DNA of 64,000 nucleotides from Escherichia coli (GTDB lineage Bacteria > Pseudomonadota > Gammaproteobacteria > Enterobacterales > Enterobacteriaceae), in the NCBI RefSeq assembly GCF_003334765.1, contig NZ_QOWT01000016.1. One strand, 5' to 3'. Each line of letters opens with the position of its first letter. Position 1 is the first letter of the stretch. This document shows, one piece after another, positions 10,073 through 15,081 of this stretch. Under the pieces are notes generated by a model that made no database searches, had not been told where the DNA came from, and was given only the letters and a program-made list of their open reading frames with translations. The translations under genes and the position numbers were made by a program.

Positions 10073-11371
10073 TTAACTAAGCGTTTTCTGCCAGACAAAA
10101 CTTACGCCATTCTCACCTTCAGCCACACCTTCTTGCGTCACAAATACCCCTGCCGCCGCAATCAGCGTTTCGCCATAAAACAGCAGTGGCGTGGTGTCAC
10201 GTAGCCACGGCGGCACGCCCAGCTCTTGCCAGATTTTCTTTAGCTTACGTCCGCCGTTACGCCCGACAATATGCAGCAATCCTGGCGCTTTGAAACGCAC
10301 GCTGACCGCTTCGTCTGCACGCGGAGGGCGAATATCGCCTCCCGCATTAAGCTGTACACTTCCCAGCCCCGCCGGTAATTCCAGCGGTTGAAGCCACGTC
10401 TGCCACGGCACAATGTTTTCGCTTTGCCCGGTGACGGATTTAATCCACCACAGTTGCGACTGATAGCGTCGGATTTCAAACGCGCCCAAACGTAAACAGG
10501 GTGAGGCATCTTCCCGCGCCAGCGCCACTTCCTGCCAGATCCTCACCAACGCGTCGCGGGAAGGCATCGGTGCATTCTGCCCTGCCAGCCAGCGGCGGAT
10601 AATCGCCGCGCGGCGGGCATCACTCATCGCCAGCATTGGCACAATCTGCAGCGTCCCCTGCGGCGATTGACAGTGTGCTAAATCATCTGCCAGCAGTTCA
10701 TCCAGCAGGCTCTCTTGTTCAGCACAAAGTGCGGCGCTGCGGGCCGTTGCTTCGGCAAAATGCGGCCAACGCTGCTGCAATAACGGCACTACGCGCAGGC
10801 GCAGAAAGTTACGATCGTATGAGTCGTCCTGATTACTTTCGTCTTCAATCCAGCGTAAATCATACTGACGCGCCCACTGCACCAGTTCCCCCCGCGTGCG
10901 GGCGAGCAACGGGCGAATAAGCCGCGTTCCGGCAAACTCCGAGACTTCCGCCATAGCCGAAAGCCCGGCAGGGCCACTGCCGCGTTTTAGCGCCAGCAGA
11001 AAGGTTTCACATTGATCGTCGAGATGTTGCGCGGTGACCAGCACTTCACCGGGCAACAAGGTGCGGGCAAATGCCTGATAACGTGCCTGCCGCGCCTGGG
11101 CCTCAATGCCCAGTCCTTCTTGCGCAAGTTGTACGCGTTCGACCACCAGCGGCACCTGCCACTGTTGGCAGACGTTTTCGCAATGCGTAACCCAGGCATC
11201 GGCATTGGCACTTAAACCGTGATGCACATGAATAGCGCGCAGAGCGACACCCGGATTTTCCGTCCGCCACTGCACCAACTGATGCAGCAGAACGGTGGAG
11301 TCAAGCCCGCCGCTAAAGGCCACCAGAATCTGGCGTGAGGTGAGAAGTTGTCTATTGAGCGTGAGTGTCAT
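10073..11371 (-). CDS. tilS: tRNA(Ile)-lysidine synthetase
   Basis: 432-aa ORF with PP-loop motif SGGLDS ([13 protein letters not shown]); recognised TilS. Confidence 0.95.
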
Positions 11372-11435
11372 GATGGTGCGATTTTACAGTAGCAATGCCC
11401 GGCACGTTACCGGGCAAATGCGGCGATGACAAGCC

Positions 11436-11825
11436 TTACTGCTCATACAGTTCCAACGGCAGCCCGTCCGGATCGTTAAAGAAGGTGAAGCGTTTTTGCG
11501 TGTATGGATCGACACGGATGGTTTCACACTTCACGTTATGGCTTTCAAGGTGCGCCACTGCCGCATCGATGTCATCAACGCTAAAAGCCAGATGACGCAG
11601 ACCGCAAGCTTCCGGTCGGCTGGGTCGTTCCGGCGGGAACGGAAATGAGAAAAGCTCAATCACATATTGCCCATTAAGCGCCAAATCCCCTTTCCATGAG
11701 TCGCGCGCTTCGCGATAGACTTCGCTTTGCAGCGTGAAACCAAGAATATCGCAGTAGAAAGCTGTGCTCACCGCATAATCCGTCGCAATAATCGCAATAT
11801 GGTGAACCTGTTTTAAACCCAGCAT
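11436..11825 (-). CDS. yaeR: VOC/glyoxalase-fold protein YaeR
   Basis: 129-aa product from the ATG preceded by AAGGAG (MLGLKQVHHIAIIATDYAVS); the ORF-track start at 11852 is further upstream. Confidence 0.85.
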   Translation of the reverse strand: MLGLKQVHHIAIIATDYAVSTAFYCDILGFTLQSEVYREARDSWKGDLALNGQYVIELFSFPFPPERPSRPEACGLRHLAFSVDDIDAAVAHLESHNVKCETIRVDPYTQKRFTFFNDPDGLPLELYEQ

Positions 11826-11881
11826 AACGTCTCCTTTATTTGTTAACAGCACGTTACTCGCCCGGAAGCCGCTCTGGCAAG

Positions 11882-14023
11882 TTATCCCGCCATTTTTAGG
11901 ACTCGTACGCGGTAAACGCCGTCTTCGTCCTGTTTCGCGCCGTGAATATCCGTTTCAAAACCGGGGTAATGTTGCCCGACGGAACAAAGCATCAGTAGAA
12001 AATCGAGTACTGTGCGGCTCTCTTTGGTCAGCATTTCTCCAGGCATCAACAGCGGTACGCCCGGTGGATAAGGCAGGATCATATTTGCCGATACTCTACC
12101 GACCAGTTGTTCCAGCGCAATGGTTTCTACTTCGCCTTTAATTTGTCGTTGCCATGCCTGATGTGGCGTCATGATCATCTCCGGCAAAGTATCGAATGCC
12201 CGCAACATCAAACCGGGAAGATCGTGTTTACGAATCAGCTTATGGATCCCTTGTGCCAGATCCTGAATACGCATATTGCGGTAGAAATCGGGATCTTCTG
12301 CATAGAGATCGGGTAGCATATTTTTGATCCGCAGGTTGAGATCGTAAGAGCGTTTGAATTCCGTCAACCCACGCAATAATCCCATTGCTTTGGTTTTATC
12401 GATGCCAATACTAAAGAGAAACAGCAGGTTATAAGGGCCGGTTTTCTCTACTACGATCCCACGTTCGTCGAGGAATTTTGCTACCAGCGCCGCCGGGATC
12501 CCCTCCTCGCTCATATTGCCCTGCTCGTCCATCCCCGGTGTCAAAATAGTGACTTTAACCGGATCGAGAAACATATGATCGGCATCCGCATCGTTAAAGC
12601 CGTGCCACTGTTCGCCAGGCGCAACGGGCCAGCATTCGGCTTCATCCACCTGCGGCGGTTGCCAGATATCGAAAAACCAACCGTCAGACTCTTCCCGCAG
12701 CCGCTGGACCTCTTTGCGAAAATGCAGAGCTCGTTCTACTGAACGGTTAATCAGCCGTTTGCCCGGATTACCACGCAGCATCGCCGCCGCCGTCTCAACC
12801 GAAGCAACAATGGGATAACTGGGCGAGGTGGTGGTATGCATCATAAAGGCTTCGTTAAAGGCCTCTTCGTCATACTCGCCTTTAATGTGGATCAGCGAAG
12901 CCTGCGATAACGCCGCCAGCATTTTGTGGGTCGATTGCGTTTCGAAGATCACTTTTCCCGCAACACGCTCGCCGCTCATACCACTTTTACCCTGGTAGAT
13001 CGGATGAAAATGGGTGTACGGCACCCAGGCAGAATCGAAGTGAATCGACGGGACATCCAGCGTCTGTTTGATCCAGTCGGTGTTGTAGAGCAAGCCATCA
13101 TAGGTGGAGTTGGTGATCACCGCATGAACCGGCCATTGTGCTTGCGTGGTAGCAGCGACTTTCTCTTCGATGCTGTCGCGAGTAAATTCACGGCGCGGGA
13201 TCCCACCAAGAATCCCCAACGCATTACGCGTCGGTTTCAGCCAGACTGGCACTACATCGTTCATCATCAACAGATGCGCCAGCGATTTATGACAATTGCG
13301 GTCGATCAACAGCGTACTGCCGGATGGCGCGGCGTACATACCCACAATTTTGTTCGACGTCGATGTTCCGTTGGTAACGATATAACTCTGTTCCGCGCCA
13401 AAAGTCCGCGCGATGTACTCTTCCGCTTCCAGGTGTGGCCCGGTGTGGTCGAGCAACGAACCAAGCTCGGTGACCGAAATAGAGACATCAGCCTTAAGAG
13501 TATTCCCGCCGAAAAAATCATAAAACAGACAGCCAACCGGGCTTTTTTGATATGCGGTGCCGCCCATATGCCCCGGCGTACAAAAGGTGTACTTCCGCTC
13601 TTTGACGTAGGTAAACAAGGCTTTCGTGAACGGCGGTGTAATGTTATCAAGATATTCGTCGGTGTACTGACGCATACGAATGGCGATATCTTCCGCCTGC
13701 CCCAGCGCATATTCAAAAAACCAGAGCGCCATCCGCATATCCTGCACGCTGACATCCATCGTCGAGTGGGTGTTGATGAAGGCATAAAGCGGGAGATATT
13801 CATTAAGCTGATTGATATCGCTACATAAATCGAGACTGTACTCATCCCAGTCAAAAATCACGCCGCAAATTCGAGGGTTATGTTCGATAAATTTCAGCAA
13901 ATCAACGCTGTTTTGTGGCCAGATAATCTGAAAGCCTTGCGCCACCAGCGCCGACTCCAGTTCTTTGATGGGCTCATCTTTATAAAAGACGCCATGCGGT
14001 CCCATAATGGCAATGATGTTCAT
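11882..14023 (-). CDS. ldcC: lysine decarboxylase 2 (constitutive), PLP-dependent
   Basis: 713-aa ORF; recognised LdcC sequence with the PLP-lysine region (STHK). Confidence 0.95.
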   Translation of the reverse strand: MNIIAIMGPHGVFYKDEPIKELESALVAQGFQIIWPQNSVDLLKFIEHNPRICGVIFDWDEYSLDLCSDINQLNEYLPLYAFINTHSTMDVSVQDMRMALWFFEYALGQAEDIAIRMRQYTDEYLDNITPPFTKALFTYVKERKYTFCTPGHMGGTAYQKSPVGCLFYDFFGGNTLKADVSISVTELGSLLDHTGPHLEAEEYIARTFGAEQSYIVTNGTSTSNKIVGMYAAPSGSTLLIDRNCHKSLAHLLMMNDVVPVWLKPTRNALGILGGIPRREFTRDSIEEKVAATTQAQWPVHAVITNSTYDGLLYNTDWIKQTLDVPSIHFDSAWVPYTHFHPIYQGKSGMSGERVAGKVIFETQSTHKMLAALSQASLIHIKGEYDEEAFNEAFMMHTTTSPSYPIVASVETAAAMLRGNPGKRLINRSVERALHFRKEVQRLREESDGWFFDIWQPPQVDEAECWPVAPGEQWHGFNDADADHMFLDPVKVTILTPGMDEQGNMSEEGIPAALVAKFLDERGIVVEKTGPYNLLFLFSIGIDKTKAMGLLRGLTEFKRSYDLNLRIKNMLPDLYAEDPDFYRNMRIQDLAQGIHKLIRKHDLPGLMLRAFDTLPEMIMTPHQAWQRQIKGEVETIALEQLVGRVSANMILPYPPGVPLLMPGEMLTKESRTVLDFLLMLCSVGQHYPGFETDIHGAKQDEDGVYRVRVLKMAG

Positions 14024-14121: not shown

Positions 14122-15081
14122 TTACGCGTAACCGTAGCTCATCAGGCGCTGATAACGACGATTTTTTAAATCTTCAGTGCTTAACACGTCGAGATCGGCC
14201 AGATCCGCCAGCAGTTGCGCTTTCAACGATGCCGCCATCGCTTCCGGGTTACGGTGAGCACCACCCAGTGGTTCCGGGATGATGGAGTCGATCAGTTTCA
14301 GTTCTTTCAGACGCGGAGCAATGATACCCATCGCTTCAGCCGCCAGCGGCGCTTTGTCGGCGCTCTTCCACAGAATGGACGCACAACCTTCCGGCGAGAT
14401 AACGGAATAGGTGCTGTATTGCAGCATATTCACTTTATCGCCCACGCCAATCGCCAGCGCACCGCCAGAACCACCTTCACCGATAACCGTACAAACTACC
14501 GGTACGCCGAGGCGAGACATTTCACGCAGGTTGCGTGCAATGGCTTCAGACTGACCACGCTCTTCTGCGCCCACGCCAGGATAAGCCCCCGGGGTGTCGA
14601 TAAAGGTGATGATAGGCATCTTAAAGCGTTCAGCCATTTGCATCAGACGCAGTGCTTTGCGGTAACCTTCTGGCGCTGGCATACCAAAGTTACGGCGAAT
14701 TTTTTCTTTGGTTTCACGACCTTTTTGATGACCAATGATCATCACCGGACGACCATCGAGACGGGCGATACCACCGACGATAGCTTTATCGTCTGCATAC
14801 GCGCGGTCGCCAGCCAGTTCGTCAAATTCATCAAATGCCAGGCGAACGTAATCCAGGGTATAAGGACGCTGTGGATGGCGTGCCAGTTGCGCAATCTGCC
14901 ATGCACCGAGATCGGCGAAGATTTTACGTGTCAGTTCTACGCTTTTTTCACGCAGACGATGCACTTCTTCATCGATGTTAATATCCAGTTTCTCATCCTG
15001 ACGGCTAACCGCAGTCAGAGAATCGATTTTCGCTTCCAGCTCTGCAATCGGCTGTTCAAAATCAAGGAAATTCAGACTCAT
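14122..15081 (-). CDS. accA: acetyl-CoA carboxylase carboxyltransferase alpha subunit
   Basis: 319-aa ORF starting [22 protein letters not shown]; recognised AccA. Confidence 0.95.

Follow-up and report, generated by a model that had tools for sequence, protein, structure and literature searches.

The open reading frame adjoining ldcC in the stretch of DNA analysed here, a 64,000-nucleotide piece of the Escherichia coli chromosome that we call the window, is the already known and quite ordinary gene yaeR, and we put the probability that gene identity, start site and family are jointly right at about 0.93. The start is settled as the ATG at 11825, which gives a product of 129 residues. In the reading that we favour, a weak sigma-70-type promoter (TTGCCA-18-TAACGT) fills the short spacer between ldcC and yaeR and gives rise to an mRNA that starts at 11844 and runs on into tilS, an essential gene. 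The codon GTG at 11852, which had been taken for an alternative start, belongs to the -10/discriminator motif of this promoter and is in frame by accident only, YaeR being translated from the ATG as the protein of 129 residues. The product itself is a VOC-fold protein of the SMU1112c/YaeR family, the one that includes the streptococcal 'GloA2', and a predicted metalloprotein. Useful by-products of the work are a set of predicted metal ligands, a conserved Arg-rich loop and a promoter architecture common to yaeR and tilS. The coordinates of all these features are collected in Table 1.

Table 1. Features of the yaeR locus, in positions of the window.
Feature	Position	Strand	Basis and remarks
yaeR coding sequence	11436..11825	-	129 codons plus TAA stop (11436-11438); start ATG 11825-11823; ORF, RefSeq, NF008551, initiation peak
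Shine-Dalgarno sequence AAAGGAG	11831..11837	-	Read directly; 5 nt before the ATG
In-frame GTG opening the maximal ORF, not a functional start	11850..11852	-	Shares two bases with the -10 hexamer; outside the yaeR-tilS mRNA
Transcription start (A) of the yaeR-tilS mRNA	11844	-	Cappable-seq, SMRT-Cappable-seq
-10 hexamer TAACGT, yaeR promoter	11851..11856	-	Within conserved motif GTAACGTGC (11849-11857); alignment of 26 Enterobacteriaceae loci
-35 hexamer TTGCCA	11874..11879	-	Conserved CTTGC island just past the ldcC stop; 18-nt spacer to the -10
His9 codon, predicted metal ligand 1	11799..11801	-	Aligned to GlxI His5 and to the residue-7 His of K. pneumoniae FosA; at least 90% conserved
Glu57 codon, predicted metal ligand 2	11655..11657	-	Aligned to GlxI Glu56; invariant in 34 representatives
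His78 codon, predicted metal ligand 3	11592..11594	-	Aligned to GlxI His74; invariant in 34 representatives
Glu125 codon, predicted metal ligand 4	11451..11453	-	Aligned to GlxI Glu122; invariant in 34 representatives
Internal (second) promoter of tilS, between yaeR and tilS	11396..11432	-	TTGTCA (11427-11432), 17-nt spacer, TAACGT (11404-11409), transcription start 11396

The frame reported in the initial annotation, 11436..11852 next to ldcC, is present on the minus strand. It is a maximal ORF of 138 codons plus stop that opens 29 nt past the ldcC stop codon (11882-11884), and it begins at 11852 because this is the first GTG after the upstream stop. On the same strand the genes run accA (14122-15081), ldcC (11882-14023), yaeR and tilS (10073-11371), and rof and yaeP lie beyond tilS on the opposite strand. 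A 701-nt query around yaeR was recovered from 5425 of 5426 complete E. coli genomes, with 100% identity to E. coli FORC 064 and 99.9%, that is, a single base difference, to K-12, where the gene is annotated as yaeR (b0187; RefSeq WP_000901099.1; NCBIfam NF008551 / PRK11478) with a coding sequence of 390 nt from the downstream ATG. The window thus holds the same gene as K-12, with the same start, the same product of 129 residues and the same neighbours (accA-ldcC-yaeR-tilS-rof). At residue 21 the window encodes Thr (ACA, 11763-11765, minus strand), whereas K-12 and three divergent E. coli strains encode Lys (AAA); this accounts for the one difference from K-12 within the 701-nt query, and the residue falls in helix 1 of the structural model described below.

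For comparison, 80 related loci were fetched from a one-genome-per-species collection, 62 of which are from Enterobacterales and have usable upstream sequence. The order accA-(ldcC)-yaeR-tilS-rof is conserved across Enterobacterales. Whether ldcC stands between accA and yaeR varies, but the adjacency of yaeR and tilS is nearly universal in this order; in 63 of the 80 loci tilS is the next gene downstream, with the same orientation. In Escherichia albertii ldcC is reduced to a remnant of about 36 codons (2757-2864 of the fetched locus), and in eight loci from several genera accA stands close upstream of yaeR with no match to ldcC. The human gut strain E. coli P276M (NZ_CP044293.1; 2221-3182 of its locus) has lost the 3' part of ldcC together with the 5' half of yaeR; its annotation lists the two remnants as pseudogenes, and tilS is intact. 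Since a natural strain carries these truncated copies, ldcC and yaeR are dispensable in it, and yaeR is so under ordinary conditions. LdcC decarboxylates L-lysine and TilS attaches L-lysine to C34 of tRNA-Ile2, so that both neighbours of yaeR use the same amino acid and, with yaeR, lie in one orientation (10073-14023, minus strand); this common use of lysine is probably a coincidence. Another 14 of the fetched loci hold homologues with 61-69% identity to E. coli YaeR; they come mainly from Bacteroidota (Dyadobacter, Cytophaga, Chitinophaga, Flavobacterium and Leeuwenhoekiella) and are found without the enterobacterial gene neighbours. At the level of sequence, so high an identity across phyla is unusual and suggests either strong constraint or horizontal transfer.

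The start of yaeR had been described as ambiguous between two in-frame ATGs, at 11852 and 11825. Two in-frame candidates do exist, nine codons apart, and the downstream one is an ATG as claimed, but the upstream codon reads GTG; the supposed ambiguity disappears because this GTG is part of the promoter of yaeR itself and precedes the start of the transcript. The preference already expressed for the downstream ATG holds, as RefSeq, the bounds of family models, the 62 enterobacterial loci, the published transcription start and initiation profiling all agree on it, and it holds as well that a strong Shine-Dalgarno sequence is found at this start only. The form of 129 residues is the one that RefSeq gives for K-12 and for all strains inspected, and the NCBIfam equivalog NF008551, itself 129 positions long, matches residues 1-129 of the ATG-started protein. 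In the longer, GTG-started form the Pfam domain PF00903 begins only at residue 16, and in the solved homologues 2p25 and 3l7t, as in the short form, two to three residues precede the conserved strand HH(I/V)A.

The comparison among species points the same way. An ATG aligned to 11825 is kept in 59 of the 62 Enterobacterales loci, and 56 carry a Shine-Dalgarno-like 4-mer at -16 to -4. By contrast with this, the in-frame GTG is intact at codon -9 in only five loci. In 37, reading back from the yaeR ATG to the nearest stop meets no other ATG, GTG or TTG in frame, and in 20 a stop codon falls within the nine codons upstream of the ATG. Between E. albertii and E. coli the 27-nt stretch from GTG to ATG differs by two substitutions, both at second codon positions and both of a kind that would be non-synonymous were the stretch translated. 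Comparison within the species is uninformative on the start, because K-12 and the three divergent E. coli strains sampled do not differ in the ldcC-yaeR spacer.

Published transcript ends place the GTG outside the main message. Cappable-seq reports a primary 5' end at U00096.2 211858(+) with a score of 27.8 (PMC4782308 supplement), and SMRT-Cappable-seq a full-length operon b0187|b0188 from 211857 (PMC6131387 supplement). Carried over to the window through the K-12 yaeR ATG at 211877, these starts correspond to 11844, an A that six bases separate from the TAACGT hexamer and that lies five to six bases past the last base of the GTG, so the main yaeR-tilS mRNA does not contain this codon. The leader that results is 19 nt long (AACAAAUAAAGGAGACGUU) and is predicted to be essentially unstructured: its fold of -1.9 kcal/mol is weaker than that of 197 out of 200 shuffled sequences.

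Alignment of the ldcC-yaeR spacer reveals two conserved non-coding islands, CTTGC and GTAACGTGC, on either side of a stretch of 17-18 nt that is not conserved in sequence and is constant in length, and it is this constant spacing of two conserved islands that leads us to read TTGCCA-18-TAACGT as a promoter. The motif is present in 28 of the 62 loci, always with a TTGnnn 16-19 nt upstream, and its distance to the ATG ranges from 22 to 39 nt, varying by non-multiples of three. The -10 hexamer ends in the first two bases of the GTG; of the 28 loci, eight have an in-frame GTG at this position, 12 a GTG that is out of frame, and eight GTT or GTA. Because both frame and triplet vary at this place, the GTG is kept as a piece of the promoter and not as a codon. 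The annotated 129-residue gene is in this way confirmed, and the persistence of an in-frame GTG upstream of it finds its explanation in the promoter.

A scan of 11250-12150 for consensus promoters and terminators found nothing. TAACGT matches TATAAT at three of six positions and the scan demanded at least four of six in the -10 element, which is why it missed the yaeR promoter; the case for the latter is made by conservation and the published transcription start. Readings of the conserved motif as a sigma-54, sigma-32 or sigma-28 element were discarded, as they matched poorly when compared by eye with the consensus sequences, and no known RNA element turned up when 11200-12100 was searched against Rfam at E <= 1.

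Initiation profiling agrees with the ATG. In INRI-seq, an in-vitro initiation-site profiling method, all five replicates show a peak at the annotated yaeR start (211877), with heights of 512-1076 CPM that are among the strongest in the portions of Table S2 covered here, and the in-vivo Ribo-RET peak falls at 211877 too (PMC9825163, Table S2). The synthetic INRI-seq template includes the GTG, but with a mere 6 nt of RNA ahead of it; the experiment therefore confirms the ATG and is no fair test of the GTG. The TRAINSPOTTER N-terminomics files make no mention of yaeR.

These data bear on a compromise between the two candidates, namely that yaeR yields two forms, the one of 129 residues from the ATG and a minor one of 138 residues from the GTG, the latter made on transcripts reading through from ldcC. 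Such transcripts would carry the GTG, since the scanned region has no terminator-like site between ldcC and yaeR; in E. coli, E. albertii and four other species the GTG is in frame and no stop separates it from the ATG, and a weak GAG stands 4 nt upstream of it. We nevertheless consider a long form very improbable. The main transcription start excludes the GTG; in most genera the codon is lost, frame-shifted or followed by a stop; the nine-residue extension is absent from every family model and solved homologue compared; and, in the part of the INRI-seq supplement covered, yaeR is found only in the annotated-start table, the expression-type table and the oligo list. As a separate observation, folding predicts that in read-through RNA from ldcC (11800-11884, minus strand) a GUAACGU arm containing the GTG pairs with ACGUUAU at the start codon of yaeR; the primary transcript from 11844 is without this arm. 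A hairpin sequestering the AUG in read-through RNA was rejected, given that the fold does no better than shuffled sequence (z = 0.33) and that its downstream arm is not conserved.

The motif that contains the -10 hexamer of yaeR is not limited to this promoter. It recurs at 11402-11410, in the internal promoter that precedes tilS, whose start at 11396 corresponds to a Cappable-seq 5' end at 212306 with a score of 88.8 (PMC4782308 supplement). Both promoters have 6-7 bases between TAACGT and the published Cappable-seq start. The copy at tilS is found in 22 of the 62 Enterobacterales loci, mostly 29 nt past the yaeR stop, and sits in the window within a palindrome, GCCCGG-TAACGTG-CCGGGC. A few species have so little sequence between yaeR and tilS that a promoter would not fit, and these do carry the promoter upstream of yaeR. 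The window contains three occurrences of GTAACGTGC where 0.55 would be expected, two of them at the yaeR and tilS promoters; the third (30437-30445) lies inside the frr coding sequence and was set aside as chance. One could go further and see in yaeR-tilS a unit conserved throughout Enterobacterales that, in many Enterobacteriaceae, is served by two tandem promoters sharing the unusual -10/discriminator TAACGTGC and placed under a common, hitherto undescribed control, exerted either by a factor recognising the motif or by a stringent-type control through the G+C-rich discriminator. YaeR might then remove an electrophile derived from a sugar phosphate, along the lines proposed for streptococcal GloA2, and not methylglyoxal. 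We regard this extended scenario as doubtful, and offer it as a speculation.

As for the protein, the assignment to the glyoxalase/bleomycin-resistance (VOC) fold made from the sequence stands up well. PF00903 is matched with an i-Evalue of 1e-29 over model positions 2-121 of 121, and PF13669 with 4e-12; at the family level, YaeR scores 287.2 bits with NF008551 (cut-off 148) and 196.7 bits with NF050075, the 'SMU1112c/YaeR family glyoxalase I-like metalloprotein' (cut-off 140). An AlphaFold2 model built on 34 diverse representatives, 41-74% identical to YaeR, reached a mean pLDDT of 94.2 and contains two beta-alpha-beta-beta-beta modules. The first is complete (strands 10-14, 31-38, 43-50 and 53-60, helix 17-27), while the second (strands 79-83, 112-117 and 123-128, helix 86-95) has its second strand represented by short bridges around residues 100-105. 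The best PDB matches to the model are all VOC proteins: 2p25 from Enterococcus faecalis (TM 0.89), 3l7t, which is SMU.1112c of Streptococcus mutans (TM 0.87), and the E. coli Ni-glyoxalase I 1f9z (TM 0.80, rmsd 2.5). Methylmalonyl-CoA epimerases 6bu2 and 1jc5 reach a TM of only 0.39-0.41. The good superposition on 1f9z and the poor one on the epimerases suggest, as far as a model can tell, that YaeR is an open, dimer-forming monomer like those of small glyoxalase I enzymes, and not a closed epimerase monomer.

Lack of a conserved VOC metal-binding site had been named beforehand as the result that would speak against this assignment, and such a site was found, made up of H9, E57, H78 and E125. 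A profile alignment with GloA, whose sequence was verified to be identical to that of 1f9z, pairs these residues with GloA H5, E56, H74 and E122 (hhalign probability 97.8%), which are the four Ni ligands of glyoxalase I. Conservation of the ligands, together with the Zn2+ reported in 3L7T, leads us to infer that YaeR would bind a divalent metal, Zn2+ or Ni2+. The family also has a Pro/Arg-rich loop of its own, PxRxSxPEAxGLRH (residues 65-78), where the pLDDT drops to 82-84, and its conserved basic residues in the 34 representatives include R38, R67 and R77; speculatively, loop and basic residues could form a site for an anionic substrate.

What YaeR does with its metal is less easily said. It had been noted as a protein without an assigned function, and the literature bears this out: in a full-text search, where most matches to yaeR are misspellings of 'year', few papers mention the gene and none assigns it a function, nor is any enzymatic activity or substrate reported for YaeR or any close relative. 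Its deletion in E. coli has no morphological effect (PMC11237625). The curated family models narrow the choice, since YaeR remains below the glyoxalase I cut-offs (34.1 bits against 120 for TIGR00068 and 29.7 against 165 for NF050074), below those of the FosA/FosB fosfomycin thiol transferases (16-26 bits against 171-310) and below that of methylmalonyl-CoA epimerase (28.2 bits against 114.95 for TIGR03081). Judged by these cut-offs, YaeR is not a bona fide member of any of the three groups.

Two other functions deserve to be weighed here. YaeR could be a genuine second glyoxalase I, a lactoylglutathione lyase acting on the hemithioacetal of methylglyoxal and glutathione: it has the same four metal ligands as GlxI, its model superposes on 1f9z, and the streptococcal orthologue bears the name GloA2. 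We find this unlikely, however, in view of the distance to the glyoxalase I cut-offs, of the 19% identity to GloA in structural alignment, and of the behaviour of S. mutans, where deletion or over-expression of the orthologue barely changed tolerance to methylglyoxal or glyoxal and the authors deem methylglyoxal an unlikely substrate (PMC10911100).

YaeR could also be a non-catalytic protein that binds or sequesters a small molecule, of the bleomycin-resistance or TnmS type, or else a thiol transferase of the FosA/FosB kind, for the antibiotic-binding proteins TnmS3 and TnmS1 and FosA/FosB appear among the next-best structural matches in Foldseek and the FosA models give weak sequence matches (E about 1e-5). 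However, sequestering VOC proteins usually come without metal ligands, whereas all four are conserved in the YaeR family; FosA and FosB use three ligands, and their models score YaeR far below their cut-offs. Moreover, yaeR is chromosomal and syntenic across Enterobacterales, with no resistance or biosynthetic context. This alternative seems to us just as improbable as a second glyoxalase I.

Our preferred proposal is that of a metal-dependent enzyme of the SMU1112c/YaeR family with a substrate other than methylglyoxal. By analogy with small glyoxalase I, YaeR would be a homodimer with two metal sites, holding Zn2+ or Ni2+, at the subunit interface, an arrangement taken from its homologues. 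The metal would polarise the vicinal oxygens of a small carbonyl substrate, and a proton-transfer isomerisation would proceed through a metal-bound enediolate. The most likely substrate would be a thiol adduct or a reactive electrophile derived from a sugar phosphate. We hold this mechanism tentatively, and give it slightly less than an even chance of being right.

The known systems closest to YaeR are SMU.1112c/GloA2 of S. mutans (3L7T) and the E. faecalis protein (2P25), which belong to the same NF050075 family. They are 46-47% identical to it in structural alignment, are found by phmmer with E values of 5e-28 and 4e-31, superpose with a TM of 0.87-0.89, and have both the PxRxSxPEAxGLRH motif and the four ligands in common with YaeR, although they come from another phylum and another gene context. 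The 3L7T protein is reported to bind Zn and is predicted to act as a homodimer (PMC10911100). A gloA2 mutant of S. mutans shows a fructose-specific defect in growth, chaining and autolysis, which depends on FruI, a PTS forming F-1-P, and is reversed by glutathione, and its authors propose a reactive electrophile as the substrate of GloA2 (PMC10911100; PMC12077213). This fructose and F-1-P phenotype is reported for the streptococcal gene only. E. coli GloA (1F9Z), in turn, has the same fold, the same monomer conformation and four aligned metal ligands, but is only 19-25% identical to YaeR in structural and profile alignments, and the Arg/Pro-rich loop of YaeR (residues 61-78) has no counterpart in it.
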